From: Xylographa opegraphella
Taxonomy: Eukaryota
Length of the DNA: 64,000 bases
Direction of reading: 5' to 3'
NCBI GenBank assembly: GCA_022813865.1
Contig: JALDZX010000019.1
Coordinates: forward strand, 186,001 to 250,000
In this document: one piece after another, positions 3,070 to 10,499 of the stretch
Layout of the letters: every line of letters begins with the position of its first letter
How positions within the stretch are numbered: position 1 is the first letter of the stretch
The notes under the pieces: model-generated
Database searches by the model: none
The model's input: only the letters and a program-made list of their open reading frames with translations
What the model was told of the DNA's origin: nothing
Position numbers and translations under genes: made by a program

Positions 3070-4929
3070 ATGGCTTCAACAGCTGCCTCTCACGACCAGG
3101 ACAACCACGACCACATCCTTCGACCGAGGGCTGTTAAACCTGGGAACCCCATGGTACTTCGCGCCATGAGTGAGGAGCGGACATTGAAGCCGAACGGCTC
3201 TGTGAACATGCACCACTCTGGATTATCTAGGTCTTGATCTCGTCGTTACAGGCTCTATACCATACGACGTTGCTGATACTTTTGCAGCGGACGGTCAACG
3301 CCCCTCCCGGCCGATGCTCCGCCTTCACTTCAGTCGATATCTTCAGCGCGGAAGCAGATAAGGGCACAGCAGAAACACCGGATGTTCCCTACCGTCGACT
3401 ACTTTGCCCGCGTCTCCCATTTTGATCCGAAGAGCGAATATAGAGATTTTAAAGGGTTCTTTGTACTCTTCTGGATTGGATTAGCTATCATGGTTATGAC
3501 AACCATGCTACGAAATATAAAAGATACGGGCCTGCCATTGAGGGTACGGCCATGGCAATTGTTGACAGCGAATACCTGGCAGTTAGCCTTGAGTGACGGA
3601 GCCATGGTTCTTAGTACTGGTTTAAGCATCCCATTACAAAAATTCTTTCGTCAAAGTAATGGGATATTTCGCTGGTCGAGACTTGGAATGCCTACCCACA
3701 GCATATACCAAGTCGCATGGCTTGCGCTATGGGTAAATTGGCCATTCATGCTGAACTGGAAGTGGACCGCTCAAGTCTTCTTTACGCTCCATACACTAGT
3801 GATATTAATGAAGATGCACTCGTATGCCTTCTATAATGGACATCTTAGCACAACCGAGCGCCGCTTATCCGCGCTGGACAACCCGGAGACAGCCTCAACT
3901 GCGGCTGCTGTACGGTACCCGAGCTCCAGCACTAATATTAACGAGATCACTCAGGCATCGGAGGAGAAGAAAGATGCAGACGCTAAAGAGGCTCTGACAC
4001 AATTACGGGAGGACCTAGCATTTGAATTGACTTCACCCCTAGGACAAGTTACTTACCCGCAGAATCTGACTGTATGGAATTATGTCGATTATATTCTATG
4101 TCCCACGCTTTGCTACGAGCTCGAGTATCCGAGAACAGAGAAGACGCAATGGGCCGAGTTGTTTTATAAGACACTGGCTGTCTTTGGATGCATCTTCCTC
4201 CTCACCGTTACAAGTGAAGAATTTATCGTACCAGTCTTGAATGAATCAGCCCTTCGCTTGGAAGGCTTGACAAAGTGGACAGATATGGGCCTTGTGCTTG
4301 CAGAGACAATCAGTATGCTGTTGTTTCCATTCATGGTTATATTCCTGCTCGTATTTCTCGTCATCTTTGAATACGTGCTGGGCGCATTTGCAGAGATTAC
4401 GTGTTTTGCGGATCGCCATTTCTACTCTGATTGGTGGAACTCGTGCGACTGGTAAGTAATTAGTTGGCTGCTATAAGGCGGAAGTGCTAACATTATCGAC
4501 CAGGCTCGAGTTCTCACGCGAATGGAATATCCCTGTCCATCACTTCTTACGTCGACATGTTTATGGTGCTTCGAGGCCATACATCTCGAAGAACATGTCT
4601 ACCACGTTAACATTTCTCATCAGCGCTCTGCTACACGAGCTGGTCATGGGGTGCATCACCAAGAAGCTGCGTGGGTACGGCTTTGTTGCGATGATGCTGC
4701 AAATGCCGATCGTTGCTATACAAAGGACAAGTCTTGTCAGGGGGAGGACTTTATTCAATGTGAGCTGAGTGATGCGCTTCATCCAACACGTTACTGACAT
4801 TGTTTTAGAATGTCTGTTTTTGGATATCAATGATTCTCGGGTTGTCAATAGTGAGTCTAATTTGGCACATACTTGTTCCTGTTTTTCTGACCGGAGTGCT
4901 AGATGTGTGCTCTCTACGTTCTCGTGTAA
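3070..4929 (+). CDS. ARE2: Sterol O-acyltransferase (ACAT/ARE-type MBOAT family), multi-exon
   Basis: Motifs MKMHSYAFYN, PTLCYELEYP, FADRHFYSDWWNS, WNIPVHHFLRRHVY and catalytic SALLHEL. Several transmembrane segments. ATG 3070, TAA 4927-4929. Confidence 0.9.
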
Positions 4930-5348: not shown

Positions 5349-6644
5349 TCATGTCCGGACCACCGCATCCAAACTGCTCAACATTGCTTGCGTTTCCTTT
5401 ACCAGCGCTTTTCTCCGCGCCCTAGCCTCATCATCGCCCTCCGTCTGCACTTCGTCCAGTTTCAGGATAATCTGCGCCAGGATCGATTCGCTCAGCTTCT
5501 TGTACTCCATGTCCCTGACCTTGGCGTCGTGGGGCGGGTTGCTGGTGAATTGAATACACTGCGGCACGAACTTCGTATGGAACGTCGATGATAGCTCGTT
5601 GAGCTTGTCCATTGCCGATTTAGGACGCGGCTGCTGCGGTTGCTGCTGATGCTGCTGATGCTGAGTTTTGGGCGATCCTTGGGCCTGGCTGGGTGCACTG
5701 CCAGGCATTGGTGAATTGCGGCCTTTGGTGGTGGTGCCGCTGCCTCCGTAGCCGCTGCTCTCATCGCGAGGGTCGCGCCGCTTCTTCTTGCCAGCGCGGT
5801 GACCTTTGCGGGCTCGCTTGGGACCACCGGCGATCGTCCCATCGACGTCGACGTGTACACCGCCATTTATCTCCTTCCCCAACATCTCGCCTTCACTCGC
5901 GCTCTCGCTGCTGTCCTCGTCCGCTCGTCCGTTTATGGGGCTCTCGCTCACGACACACATCAATTCGCTGTTCTGCTTAAGCCCTTCCTCGCGGCATGGC
6001 ACCGCGTCATCCTTAAGTACCTTGCCCTTGTACAGCAGCTTGATTCGCCGCGGGTCCATTCCGGGGTCAATCTTCTTGGCAGCCGTTCTCCGCAGCTCCC
6101 CTACCCGCAGTATTCCCTCTCCGATCTCGAACGCCGGGAAGTGAAGAGGGTAGGTGGTACCTCTGTGCTTGAGAATCAGGATGTCTGGCGCAAGAGGATT
6201 GGCGGCGTCGGCGCGTGAGGCGATGGGGCCCCGCGAGGAGGGGAAGTAGGAGCTTGTGCTGTTGGGAATGTAGGTTGGCCTTGGCGGGTCGACGATATCC
6301 TCGGGTCCGAGGTAGTGGTAGTCATCTTCAGAGACGATGGGCGGGACACGGGAGGGAGAGGCAGTGAAAGGAGAGTAGCGGCCCATGTAGGAGCGCCACA
6401 TGGACATGGTGAAAAGGAGGATGAGGATGGGAGCAAGCGTTGCGATGAGAATGGTAGGAGTGACAGAGGAAGGGAGATGGGAGGAAAGCGCGAGTAGTAG
6501 AGTTGGGAGCGAGGATGCAACGGGTGCCGGTGTTGGTGAAGCGAACGGTATGAGAGATTGTAATTGTGACGGCAGTAGCGGATATAAGGAATCTAGGTAC
6601 GACTGGGCCACATTAGTGAGCTTTGAAACTGTAGAGGAAGCCAC
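5349..6644 (-). CDS. BAG-family Hsp70 co-chaperone (ubiquitin-like domain + C-terminal BAG domain). First ATG at 6407, with a possible GUG-initiated extension from 6644
   Basis: UBL-like segment RRIKLLYKGKVLKDD..LKQNSELMCVV. BAG helix bundle EYKKLSESILAQIILKLDEVQTEGDDEARARRKALVKETQAMLSSLD. Confidence 0.88.
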   Translation of the reverse strand: MASSTVSKLTNVAQSYLDSLYPLLPSQLQSLIPFASPTPAPVASSLPTLLLALSSHLPSSVTPTILIATLAPILILLFTMSMWRSYMGRYSPFTASPSRVPPIVSEDDYHYLGPEDIVDPPRPTYIPNSTSSYFPSSRGPIASRADAANPLAPDILILKHRGTTYPLHFPAFEIGEGILRVGELRRTAAKKIDPGMDPRRIKLLYKGKVLKDDAVPCREEGLKQNSELMCVVSESPINGRADEDSSESASEGEMLGKEINGGVHVDVDGTIAGGPKRARKGHRAGKKKRRDPRDESSGYGGSGTTTKGRNSPMPGSAPSQAQGSPKTQHQQHQQQPQQPRPKSAMDKLNELSSTFHTKFVPQCIQFTSNPPHDAKVRDMEYKKLSESILAQIILKLDEVQTEGDDEARARRKALVKETQAMLSSLDAVVRT

Positions 6645-7071
6645 GGTGGCGGGTGGGAAGAAATCGTCTTGCTGAGTAAATCGGACGACAGATTTGGTGG
6701 GGAGAAGTGGAACGAAGAAATTCGAGATTCGAATCGGCTGACAAGCGCGCTTCTAATTTCAGGCTAATGCCGCTTGATTCGCGTCACGCCGTAATGGCTA
6801 CCTTTGACACTCGAAATAATACATACCGGAGTGTATACTTGTGTACTTTTGTAGATCTATGACTGAAACTTAACATATTAATGTGCTATGTACTAACTGC
6901 ATGTCAGATACAATGCCACATTCGATCACATGGGACAATGTTAAGGTACCCCAATTGCATATCTGCGCTCACTAGGATGTAATGCTAAACGCTGTTCACT
7001 TGGGTCGGATTGCTTAATGCAACGACGGTACAAATCATGCTGAAATTGTTCAGTGCTCAAAACCTACGCAA

Positions 7072-10056
7072 TCAAATGAGAAATGACTTGCTCCCCTCGA
7101 CCAAACCATCACTGAGTTTGGATACGCCAATCCACACAGGTGCAAATCGTCTCAGCTCCTCCAAAGCCGGAATGGTAGTCCTCTTGTTCTCGTCATTCCA
7201 TAAGCATATGACCTTACCGTCGAGTCCTCCTCCGTCGTTCTCATCGCTACTTGCCCACTTCACATGTACATCCCAAGGCTTCTCCCAAGTCCGGCTCCAA
7301 AGTCTAATTTCGTTGCTTCCGTCGTCTCCCACCCGTCTGAATGGACCTTCATCACCTGCTCCTTCTACTCTTATATCAGATATTGGTCTGTTGAACTGTA
7401 TTTTGCAATTGCGTGTATTGGTTCCCTTGACATGGATATGGGCTTCGTTGCCGATTCGAGTAATATTGTACGTCAGCCAATCCGCATATCCATACATTGG
7501 GGGAACTTCGGGATGAGTAGCGGCGACCACTCTTGGTGGAATGCCGTTCCAGCTGCACTCGGTGAGTCCTGTATACCTTTCACTTTGCACACAGCTTGGA
7601 GTCTGAGCTGCAGCACTTGGCAGAGTATGGATGACCTCATAAATGAGTGGTCTTCCAATGCCGGTAAGTGAAGCTCGATTAATACCAGTATCAAGGTCGA
7701 CCCTTTGGATAAAATAGAGTTTATGTCGATTGTTTGCCGAAAATGGGAAAGCGAGAAGATTATAGATTAAAGTCCCAGCAAAGATGCACATTAGGAACAT
7801 TGGAACATGAAACGTATAGCGGTGTAGATATGGTCCGAGTGGCGCGAGTAGTAGTACTGAGACGATGGACATCACCATGTAGACGGTCAAAGATGAACTA
7901 CCATCGGATAAGGTCTGATACGTGGCTGACATGAAGAGGAGGCCAATCTGACCAACAAAGACGACCGCGATAGGTGCAAATAGTAGGAACTGAAGCAGCC
8001 ATGTCCATGCGGGTAAAGACCAGCTCCAAGGCTGTTCATACCCATACACCCTGCTTTTCTTTGGTTCGCTCAAAACTTGTTCCGCTTCTGGAGGCTTTCC
8101 GATGTGGGAGCGCGAAGTATAGTTTGCGAAAGTTGAACCTACTCTTCCCCGTAATAGAGATGTAGTCTCGCCAGGCTCGTCTTCTTCTTCGTTATCCTCA
8201 GCATCCACCCCCTGTGTCTGTTCGTCTCTGCCAGGTGTAAGCAATCGTGCACTCGATACACTCCCTGATCGTGGACTCCTGGGCCCTTCCTGACCATCAA
8301 GATTCCTCTCGTATTCATCAGCATATTGCGACTTTTTGGACAAACCAAACAACTCCAGGAAGGCTATAACAGTTGCCAGGAACAAGGCGGCAAAATAAAA
8401 GACCATGAAGTATCCTGCGGCTATGTGAAATCTTTCTTCCGACACGGTGACAAGCACAAGAAGTATCCAGGAACCTGCAAACATCCAGAGTAGAGAATAC
8501 GCTCGATGCAGCGCCGTGGGTCGCACGAAGTCTGAAGCTCGAGAAAGAAACCATGCTATGAATAGCCACGCAGACAGCATCATACTCCACACAGCATATG
8601 GACTCGAAGACACGATGAAGGGATTGATCCTGTTGAGCAGAAATGCGAGACCAACAACCCCAGCGGAAGCGGCAGCGAAGATAATAGGATAACGGAAGAA
8701 TCCCCGCCACCCTTGTAGGCCGACCACGTCGTCGCCTTCTGCGTGATGGTGATGTTTGAACGAGCTGAATAAATACAGCTTGTCAACTTTGAATAGTACC
8801 GCACTTATGACGATAAGTGCAACTGGGCCAACCACAAGAAGAGTGACGGATAGAGCGAACAGGGTATGCAATTCAAAAACAGCAAACGCAAGACCAAATA
8901 GATCGAACCAGACGGCGTCAGATCCTGAGCCATTCGAAACTTTTCCTTTTGCAGGATCCCCACCTCTGAACGTTGAGCTTGTGTCTGACGTAAGTCCTTG
9001 TATTGTTGACAGCGCAGCTGACAGCATATGCCAAAGAGAATCGATGCTTGTTCGTCTTGTGTCGTCTTGATCAGTATGATAGCGGCTTCGAGGTTCCATG
9101 AACGCAATATCCAATCCTCGTAACCCTAGAATACCATTGAATATTATGTAGTCGGTCTGACTTCGTACAAACCCGCTCTTAAACCCATCGCCGCTGACGA
9201 CTGTCCCGAAAGGGTGTTTACTTCCTTTATAGAACTTAGTCACTTCTGTATCTGTGCTTCTGAATAGTGTGGCACGTCCACCAGCACCAGCTCCCTCGAG
9301 ATTGAGGAATGTTCGAAGAAACTGAGACCGGGCTATTGGATGCGCACAGAATGCATTTGCTCCATTTAGAAAGTCTTCTTCGCCATTATTGAGCAGTGCG
9401 ACCACTCCTATTTTGGGTTGATTACCAGATGTCGTGAAAAACTTGATAAGCTGGAGAATCGTCACAACGCCGATACCATCATCTGTCGCTCCGTACCCTG
9501 TAGAGACACTATCATAGTGAGCATTGACTAGGACCCCTCCAGGACCATTTGGTTTCGATTGAGATGTCCACCAATGTCCGGTATCGTCCTCCTTGCCTCG
9601 AACATAGACCATGATGTTGGTCCCCTCAAAGTACACTGATAATTTGCCAGACTCAAAAGTCACATTCGAGGTCATGTCGTTGAATATAACAGCACGCTCT
9701 GAATATTGTACAGATGACCGTCTCTCGTGACTGACCACACCATAATCGTTGAGACTTGTGGTAGCATTCGAAGCTTTGTTTTCCGTCAGTATTGTTTCTA
9801 TTCTTCTCAATAGCCAATCCCGAACGAAGTCGTTTCGGTGGCTGTTGTACGGGTGGAATCCATTTGTGAGAACTTGAAGGTCGGCCCACGCTTCTGAGAT
9901 GTTGATCCCCTTGACGGGAGTAGCATTCTCAGGGGCTGATGGGACAACCGAGTGTATCACAAGTAAAGTGATCAAGAGCCCAGCATAGATAATCGAAATG
10001 ATTATGGTGACAGGTAAGGGGGTGAAGCCGATTGGGTTGTGCAGCAACCACTTCAT
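7072..10056 (-). CDS. PFF1: Vacuolar membrane protease, M28 metallopeptidase family (PFF1/ERMP1-like), single exon, 994 aa
   Basis: M28 motifs VLVNAHYDSV, GATDDGIG, NNGEEDFLNGA, FLNLEGAGAGG and YHTDQD, followed by a multi-TM region. Confidence 0.92.
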   Translation of the reverse strand: MKWLLHNPIGFTPLPVTIIISIIYAGLLITLLVIHSVVPSAPENATPVKGINISEAWADLQVLTNGFHPYNSHRNDFVRDWLLRRIETILTENKASNATTSLNDYGVVSHERRSSVQYSERAVIFNDMTSNVTFESGKLSVYFEGTNIMVYVRGKEDDTGHWWTSQSKPNGPGGVLVNAHYDSVSTGYGATDDGIGVVTILQLIKFFTTSGNQPKIGVVALLNNGEEDFLNGANAFCAHPIARSQFLRTFLNLEGAGAGGRATLFRSTDTEVTKFYKGSKHPFGTVVSGDGFKSGFVRSQTDYIIFNGILGLRGLDIAFMEPRSRYHTDQDDTRRTSIDSLWHMLSAALSTIQGLTSDTSSTFRGGDPAKGKVSNGSGSDAVWFDLFGLAFAVFELHTLFALSVTLLVVGPVALIVISAVLFKVDKLYLFSSFKHHHHAEGDDVVGLQGWRGFFRYPIIFAAASAGVVGLAFLLNRINPFIVSSSPYAVWSMMLSAWLFIAWFLSRASDFVRPTALHRAYSLLWMFAGSWILLVLVTVSEERFHIAAGYFMVFYFAALFLATVIAFLELFGLSKKSQYADEYERNLDGQEGPRSPRSGSVSSARLLTPGRDEQTQGVDAEDNEEEDEPGETTSLLRGRVGSTFANYTSRSHIGKPPEAEQVLSEPKKSRVYGYEQPWSWSLPAWTWLLQFLLFAPIAVVFVGQIGLLFMSATYQTLSDGSSSLTVYMVMSIVSVLLLAPLGPYLHRYTFHVPMFLMCIFAGTLIYNLLAFPFSANNRHKLYFIQRVDLDTGINRASLTGIGRPLIYEVIHTLPSAAAQTPSCVQSERYTGLTECSWNGIPPRVVAATHPEVPPMYGYADWLTYNITRIGNEAHIHVKGTNTRNCKIQFNRPISDIRVEGAGDEGPFRRVGDDGSNEIRLWSRTWEKPWDVHVKWASSDENDGGGLDGKVICLWNDENKRTTIPALEELRRFAPVWIGVSKLSDGLVEGSKSFLI

Positions 10057-10499
10057 ATTGCTCAGAGCGAATCGGATCAGCTCCGAGGGATTGATTTGTC
10101 AATCCCCAGGACCTAGCTTATTGGCGTTTCATTCGTAACCAGATTTTTGATGAGAGAGAGAATACGGTAGCACGATCTGGAATGTCCTCGACAAGCAGTT
10201 GGGCTCTGGGACTACGTTGATGACGGTCAACAAGTGCTTGTCAACGTGACTTTGCGGGACCAAACTTTGCGGGGCTCAAACTTGTGATTCTGCCGAATCC
10301 GGGTGGAAATTCGGGCCGACAAGAGCCGAGGGCGGTGAGAGGATGACCTTCGCTAGCAATACTACTCACATACCACAGTACAGAACAAGATAGGTAACTT
10401 TTGGTGAACCAAATACCAGAGGGTTACTTTTATCTAGCTAGTGTTACTCATTCTAGAACATAATCATAACCATATTCGACTCCTGTTTTGACAGAGGTT

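Follow-up and report, generated by a model that had tools for sequence, protein, structure and literature searches.

The window analysed here (a stretch of 64,000 nucleotides of Xylographa opegraphella DNA; GenBank assembly GCA_022813865.1, contig JALDZX010000019.1, positions 186,001 to 250,000 of the forward strand) carries on its minus strand a BAG-family gene in which a GUG codon in a strong initiation context may start a longer, membrane-anchored isoform of the protein. The gene lies in one stop-to-stop open frame (5349..6752, 467 amino acids under translation table 1) that contains no methionine from the start of the frame to ...TILIATLAPILILLFTMSMW..., and its span from the proposed GUG to the stop is 5349-6644. 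The GTG (6644-6642, minus strand) is in frame with this gene, which encodes ubiquitin-like (UBL) and BAG domains, and lies 79 codons 5' of the ATG at 6407; in the minus-strand read of the window, ATG is absent from the 150 bases 5' of it. An earlier note on this DNA had claimed that the BAG frame stays open 5' of the ATG at 6407 up to a TAG at 6753-6755 without any ATG, that a GTG in a strong context stands at 6644, and that initiation there would add 79 amino acids ending in a hydrophobic stretch. The window read and the open reading frame (ORF) call agree on the frame, the context reads cccgccaccGTGg, and the 79 residues were found at the same positions, with residues 64-79 (TILIATLAPILILLFT) abutting the methionine of the downstream AUG. 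The note had omitted an out-of-frame ATG (6613-6611) inside the extension. The coordinates of the features are collected in Table 1.

The BAG region matches Pfam PF02179 with an E value of 9.2e-22 (77.8 bits against a cut-off of 23.4), shows profile matches to BAG-4, BAG-5, BAG-3 and BAG-1 chains in the PDB, and forms helices at 344-368, 374-398 and 405-430 with a predicted local distance difference test (pLDDT) score above 90 in the AlphaFold2 (AF2) model of the long form, which was built from a 25-row alignment. The Pfam ubiquitin match of the UBL region is marginal (25.0 bits, just under the cut-off of 25.4). The model places a beta-grasp fold at 154-232, likewise with pLDDT above 90, which in Foldseek resembles ubiquitin-like domains with a target-normalised TM score of about 0.8, and also AtBAG1 (chain 4hwi_B, bound to Hsp70), and the PDB profile search matches the same region to the RAD23 UBL. 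By these profile and model matches, the gene is that of a BAG-1-like UBL-BAG protein, a predicted Hsp70 nucleotide-exchange co-chaperone.

Table 1. Features of the UBL-BAG gene, in positions of the window, listed in the direction of transcription.
Feature	Position	Strand	Remarks
In-frame TAG	6753..6755	-	closes the BAG frame 36 codons 5' of the GTG; no ATG between
Initiation context cccgccacc	6645..6653	-	A at -3 (6647), C at -4; the +4 G is base 6641
Proposed GUG start of the long (anchored) isoform	6642..6644	-	context cccgccaccGTGg; GTG in 16/16 lineage representatives
79-codon N-terminal extension VASSTVSK...LILLFT	6408..6644	-	open in the BAG frame only; ratio of nonsynonymous to synonymous substitution rates (dN/dS) 0.24-0.55; aligns with orthologues
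Out-of-frame ATG and 6-codon mini-ORF in the extension	6593..6613	-	ATG 6613-6611, TAG 6595-6593
Hydrophobic segment TILIATLAPILILLFT, long-form residues 64-79, predicted single transmembrane helix	6408..6455	-	hydropathy and AF2 helix
Conserved AUG, start of the annotated 352-aa isoform MSMWRSY...	6405..6407	-	sequence ttcaccATGtcc; Met in all 16 lineages
Ubiquitin-like domain, long-form residues 154-232	5949..6185	-	Pfam (marginal), AF2, Foldseek, profile matches
BAG domain, three-helix bundle	5364..5603	-	Pfam PF02179, profile matches, AF2
TGA stop of the gene	5349..5351	-	minus-strand read

The start codon was compared in DNA from metagenome loci. An alignment-based scan of metagenome contigs gave 45 loci, in 34 of which the tblastn match starts by query residue 45; the start codon was read in 33, and after near-identical loci had been collapsed there were 23 distinct extension sequences, from which 16 lineage representatives including the window were picked, with protein identity to the window down to about 30%. 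Locus L028, cut by a contig end, and L042-L045, with a C-terminal match only (query residues 177-466), were left out, and L035-L038 were covered by their translation, which reads 'KVASGP'. Opposite 6644, 32 of the 33 loci have a GTG, the one exception (L031) being without the VAS motif, and so does every one of the 16 representatives; elsewhere in the same genes GTG accounts for 34% of the valine codons (101/300). Around it, A at -3, G at +4 and C at +5 are each present in 16/16 lineages, C at -4 in 15/16 and G at -6 in 13/16. Fourteen of the 16 lineages have an in-frame stop 4-55 codons 5' of the GTG and no ATG between the two; in the L007 lineage an ATG stands 43 codons 5' of the GTG, which is lacking in its sister L010, and in L039 the frame 5' of the GTG runs to the contig end.

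Since the codon, its context, the open frame and the hydrophobic segment all recur in 16/16 lineages, their combination is more than chance. The alignment of orthologues for a near-cognate codon, an open frame and a membrane segment, which the earlier note had put forward as a check, therefore turned out positive. The note had treated the feature as one belonging to a single gene; in fact it is a property of an orthologue family found across much of Pezizomycotina. As read from the aligned sequences, the putative GUG start is conserved family-wide and is not a quirk of one gene.

Two side observations concern other codons of the region. Loci L031 and L041 lack both VAS and an ATG in the extension frame, which in L041 opens with a TTG directly after a TGA, only 43 codons before the methionine. 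In the window, a second in-frame GTG at 6609-6611 (minus strand; extension codon 12, aatGTGgcc) stands in a context with the same A at -3 and G at +4; in the other lineages aligned its position is not occupied by valine, and this codon is probably there by chance.

The extension behaves as coding sequence. Over the 16 lineages, in which it is 76-95 codons long, it contains no stop in the BAG frame and 29 and 21 stops in the other two frames, and the equal length 5' of the GTG contains 42, 39 and 37 stops by frame. Mean pairwise identity in the extension by codon position is 0.42, 0.56 and 0.38, highest at position 2, and dN/dS lies at 0.24-0.55 in seven related pairs, below 1 in all seven, indicating purifying selection. 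In the orthologue alignments, amino-acid conservation starts exactly at the valine aligned with the GTG. Taken as comparative evidence, this makes it very likely that the GUG-started extension is translated.

The best hydrophobic 19-residue stretch of the extension has a mean Kyte-Doolittle value of 2.25 in the window and of at least 1.64 in 16/16 lineages, and this hydrophobicity is preserved while the sequence of the extension diverges. The stretch abuts the conserved methionine, except in the L029, L032 and L033 lineages, where it lies from a few to about 17 residues earlier. The AF2 model has helices in the extension at 2-23, 43-54 and 63-86, the last of which covers the hydrophobic segment. 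By hydropathy, the protein would have a single N-terminal transmembrane helix, provided that the GUG is used, and we hold with good confidence that the extension would serve as a membrane anchor. The helix of the window protein has no charged residues in the 15 positions before it, and two positive and no negative ones in the 15 after it; across the lineages, the 15 residues after the helix carry one to four positive and at most one negative charge, and the residues before it are neutral or acidic. As the positive charges are found only C-terminal of the helix, the positive-inside rule would favour a cytosolic or nucleoplasmic position of the UBL and BAG domains, and by analogy with known anchored BAG proteins the destination membrane would be that of the endoplasmic reticulum (ER) or the nuclear envelope. 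A mitochondrial presequence is unlikely, judging by composition: the 63 residues before the best hydrophobic stretch of the window protein include one lysine or arginine and one acidic residue.

The spacer between the GTG and the downstream ATG is almost devoid of ATG. Summed over the 16 lineages, it contains 0, 2 and 0 ATGs by frame, compared to 7, 32 and 3 (42 in total) in an equal length of the downstream coding sequence; shuffling the spacer codons gave a mean of 9.8 out-of-frame ATGs, with only 0.3% of 2000 shuffles at or under the observed 2. The spacer is wholly ATG-free in 14 of the 16 lineages, and only the window and L025 have an ATG in it. That of the window (6613-6611) stands in a weak context, with C at -3 and T at +4, and its mini-ORF could modulate the number of ribosomes that reach the AUG at 6407 in this species. 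A methionine follows the helix in 16/16 lineages and in most of the more distant representatives listed. An AUG-free spacer is required by leaky scanning and would be needless if only the GUG mattered, which favours use of the downstream AUG; the depletion (2 vs 42) and the invariant AUG fit, on the level of sequence, the leaky scanning that the earlier note had assumed.

To hypothesize, some of the scanning ribosomes would initiate at the GUG at 6644, helped by its A at -3 and G at +4, with Met-tRNAi. The resulting protein of 431 aa would carry a single hydrophobic membrane-spanning helix at the end of its first 79 residues, and its UBL and BAG domains would face the cytosol or nucleoplasm, as in Bag102 of Schizosaccharomyces pombe. 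Ribosomes that pass the GUG would scan the almost AUG-free spacer of 234 nt to the AUG at 6407, where initiation would yield the soluble 352-aa protein, which is the one that annotators call. We consider it probable that the GUG gives an anchored isoform and leaky scanning to the AUG a soluble one, and nearly as probable that both come from one mRNA. Initiation at the GUG, membrane insertion and the leaky-scanning route to the short form are what we infer from conserved sequence features, and most annotations seem to miss the longer form.

The protein collections mirror this situation. Of 7,998 candidates scored in a word-indexed protein search, 264 turned out to be relatives, of which 120 were listed; among the matches listed the closest named relatives are Xylographa soralifera (90%) and X. 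bjoerkii, which places the window in a lichen-forming lecanoromycete. The listed models fall into short ones of about 345-365 aa, which span 81% of the query and have the methionine of an MSxW motif as their start, and long ones of about 405-455 aa, which cover 97-100%. P0001, a 352-aa model with 100% identity, begins at the downstream methionine, as do most of the named eukaryotic models, for instance those from Xylographa, Ptychographa, Trapelia, Umbilicaria and Teloschistales. In an alignment of 22 sequences, long models begin with 'MAS...' or 'VAS...' exactly at the valine of the window, and some NCBI eukaryotic models add residues before VAS or KVAS (Lasallia with MK-VAS, Bachmanniomyces with M-VAS, Polycauliona, P0052 and P0119). 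When a hidden Markov model of the extension was searched against 263 collected proteins, 139 matched, and the alignment reaches the first position in 79. Where the aligned residue is the first of the protein, it is M in 32 and V in 9; the 38 proteins that have it at an internal position show V in 32 cases, L in 4, another residue in 2 (one of them a misalignment) and M in none.

The initial methionine of these entries is to be read with care. P0019 equals the L023 ORF and P0242 the L032 ORF from residue 2 on, and both DNAs read GTG, so that for 2 of the 32 'MAS' proteins, the ones matched to DNA, a true AUG start was ruled out. All 10 'MAS' representatives that were looked up are calls on ENA, Logan or NCBI assemblies, and JGI-sourced entries keep V as the first residue. 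The collection writes methionine for a GTG first codon on fungal contigs, and an initial M of the ENA and Logan proteins is therefore no proof of an ATG. As an aside, P0131 (Agyrium rufum, 1237 aa, named 'transcription factor'), P0171, P0206 and P0260 join the BAG orthologue to a long upstream protein to which it is unrelated, probably because the lack of an ATG forced the gene models to fuse.

Named records with an internal valine come from Agyrium, Lasallia, Bachmanniomyces and Polycauliona, which we take to be Lecanoromycetes, from Trichoglossum (presumably Geoglossomycetes), from Phyllachora, Colletotrichum and Xylariaceae (by our assignment Sordariomycetes), from Pseudogymnoascus (presumably Leotiomycetes), from Oleoguttula and Meristemomyces (which we place in Dothideomycetes), and from Chaetothyriales. 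Eurotiales models (Aspergillus homomorphus, Penicilliopsis zonata and Penicillium rubens) have the extension annotated from a methionine. At two metagenome loci the extension starts with an ATG: L040 (caatccATGaca) has T at -3, no G at +4 and no ATG in the spacer, and L026 (gcccgcATGtcc) has C at -3, no G at +4 and one ATG in the spacer. Being just two cases, these loci are no more than suggestive of an exchange between a weak AUG and a near-cognate start in an optimal context. Leucine occupies the start position (LAS...) in P0127 (Cirrosporium), P0142 (Thelocarpon), P0117 and P0063, which possibly use a CUG or UUG start, as read from the protein only.

Several points weigh against the production of an anchored and a soluble isoform from the two starts. 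The AF2 model gives the extension low confidence (block means 46-71), 5 of the 7 pairs show weaker selection on it than on the main coding sequence, and, because the 16 lineages share ancestry and stem for the most part from a single set of metagenome contigs, the counts and the shuffle test overstate independence. Ribosomes using the out-of-frame ATG at 6613 would need reinitiation, which its 6-codon ORF would allow, to reach the AUG at 6407, the context of this AUG is unoptimised (-3 is T in nine lineages, A in five and G in two), and Eurotiales-type proteins with an AUG-started extension keep the same internal methionine, the invariance of which may therefore have a reason other than initiation. 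Furthermore, a fusion of green fluorescent protein (GFP) to BcBAG1 was cytoplasmic in Botrytis cinerea (PMC6467101), although GFP was fused there to the annotated 298-aa coding sequence, and this construct could not report a long form.

Some of these points would suit a gene in which the GUG is the sole functional start, the protein is always anchored, the methionine is an ordinary residue of a juxtamembrane MSxW motif, and the models that start there are wrong. The extension and helix are conserved everywhere, the Eurotiales models retain the internal methionine, and the internal AUG often has T at -3. However, as a rule only a share of the scanning ribosomes is captured by a near-cognate start, the depletion of ATG from all three frames of the spacer makes sense only if downstream initiation matters, and the start was never turned into a strong AUG, as none of the 38 internal residues is methionine and the two AUG cases are weak. 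It seems unlikely, then, that the GUG acts alone. It is quite improbable that two isoforms exist of which the short one owes its origin to a second transcription start, placed within the extension or shortly ahead of it, and not to leaky scanning: the choice of start codon is reinforced by alternative transcription starts in some dual-localised fungal genes (PMC7049704), yet the ATG depletion here spans the whole spacer in 14/16 lineages, as expected if ribosomes scan all of it, and no conserved promoter-like element was seen, although no search aimed at one was made.

The remaining explanations deny the extension its role as the N-terminus of an anchored protein. An RNA-level function of 6408-6644, as an untranslated leader or one translated only for regulation, would agree with the lower conservation of the extension than of the main coding sequence and with the low AF2 confidence there. 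We hold this to be very improbable, since all 16 lineages keep the BAG frame open and have stops in the two alternative frames, conservation is strongest at codon position 2, each of the seven pairs has a dN/dS below 1, hydrophobicity is kept under divergence, and Eurotiales models annotate the region as protein. The stretch 6565-6650, tried as a downstream hairpin that might aid use of the GUG and rejected as such, is no more stable than its shuffles: it folds at -13.6 kcal/mol (z -0.35), a value that 68 of 200 shuffles equal or surpass. Several NCBI models of relatives assume an upstream AUG exon spliced onto the BAG frame, and the residues before VAS in Lasallia, Bachmanniomyces, Polycauliona and others speak for it, but these added N-termini are mutually dissimilar and conservation begins exactly at the valine. 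The GTG is not preceded by a conserved AG acceptor, since the codon in front of it reads aag, acc, atc or aca, and in-frame stops lie 4-8 codons upstream in the L001, L005, L024, L029 and L033 lineages. Owing to the missing acceptor and the close stops we ruled such an exon out, its probability being minimal. Initiation at both the GUG and the downstream AUG, with an anchored and a soluble product, is the reading that we prefer.

On its 5' side the gene is followed by a PFF1-type M28 vacuolar membrane protease (7072-10098, minus strand, 1008-aa open frame), so that about 430 bp are available for the BAG gene's promoter and leader. The other neighbour is an MBOAT acyltransferase fragment (4460-4768, plus strand), which is probably one exon of a larger gene.

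If true, the conserved GUG start would correct gene models that start at the downstream AUG or invent unrelated upstream exons, and filamentous fungi would get from one gene the pair of anchored and soluble BAG proteins that fission yeast makes from two. It would also be a clear-cut example of a membrane anchor, and not a mitochondrial presequence, being added through a near-cognate start, and lineages in which a weak AUG replaces the GUG would represent a natural experiment. A concrete reason would be given for the link that the BAG mutant of B. cinerea has to ER stress and to the UPR (unfolded protein response), and it should be kept in mind that constructs made on the annotated coding sequence cannot show an anchored form. 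More speculatively, and with considerable doubt on our part, the single BAG gene of most Pezizomycotina may have held a GUG, never a strong AUG, since their radiation, which would fix, and possibly tune under stress, the ratio of anchored to soluble protein. Use of near-cognate starts depends on the status of eIF1, eIF5 and eIF2, so ER or proteotoxic stress could move the cofactor between membrane and cytosol without new transcription. Such tuning of the ratio would explain why BcBAG1 mutants show ER-stress and UPR phenotypes, and would mean that downstream-AUG models, and functional studies based on them, omit half of the gene's output.

Anchored and soluble BAG proteins are already known from yeasts. 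S. pombe Bag102 has a predicted N-terminal transmembrane segment and is found at the nuclear and ER membrane with its C-terminus towards the cytosol or nucleus, and Bag101 is cytosolic (PMC3907333); Snl1 of Saccharomyces cerevisiae is ER-anchored (PMC3962485). The window protein is a UBL and BAG co-chaperone like Bag101 and Bag102, Snl1 is likewise a BAG-domain Hsp70 co-chaperone, and the charge pattern around the helix of the window protein predicts the same orientation as that of Bag102. In contrast to the S. pombe pair, which consists of two paralogues, one gene would make both forms here. Unlike in Bag102 and Snl1, the anchor lies at residues of about 64-79 behind a conserved segment of about 60 residues and not within the first 31 or so, and it is reached only through a GUG start; the likeness to Bag102 and Snl1 is one of description.

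In filamentous fungi the same UBL-BAG family includes BagA of Aspergillus nidulans and the 298-aa BcBAG1, both studied as soluble, AUG-started proteins. BcBAG1, described as the 'unique BAG gene' of B. cinerea, has UBL and BAG domains and has been connected with ER stress, the UPR and the binding of BiP (PMC6467101). The available text of the BcBAG1 and BagA papers mentions neither a membrane anchor nor a non-AUG start; the word 'transmembrane' occurs once in the former (PMC6467101), in connection with IRE1, and not at all in the latter. In the literature searched, which lay outside most subscription journals and supplements, we found no description of a non-AUG or anchored BAG isoform in filamentous fungi. 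A near-cognate extension conserved throughout Pezizomycotina is known from cpc-1 of Neurospora crassa, where A at -3 and G at +4 are conserved and conservation is seen at the amino-acid level (PMC5487733). Unlike the gene described here, cpc-1 has several candidate near-cognate codons, an interplay with upstream ORFs and, according to the available part of that source, no known targeting function; 'BAG' does not occur in the main text of the paper.

Human BAG-1L starts at a CUG, and its extension carries a nuclear-localisation sequence, not a membrane anchor. As here, human BAG-1 is a UBL-BAG protein with N-terminal isoforms, although the extensions are unrelated in position and sequence, so that the resemblance would be one of convergence. 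Its isoforms L, M and S differ in localisation and arise with several N-termini from one mRNA (PMC7766421, PMC8384158). In dual-localised fungal proteins, such as the DualNCC and DualAUG aminoacyl-tRNA synthetases, weak AUG and near-cognate starts interchange between lineages, and the same study found no enrichment for signal-peptide cases (PMC7049704). The architecture of these synthetases, as far as the available text describes it, is like the one proposed here, with a leaky first start, a targeting segment and an in-frame AUG, and the interchange is paralleled by the GUG lineages and the AUG loci L040 and L026. The use of a near-cognate start and leaky scanning for differently localised isoforms is thus a known principle, to which the BAG case, as read from sequence, is newly added. 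What sets it apart is the nature of the targeting segment, since the extensions of the DualNCC and DualAUG proteins are mitochondrial presequences, whereas the BAG extension has almost no basic residues before the helix and a predicted transmembrane anchor at its end.

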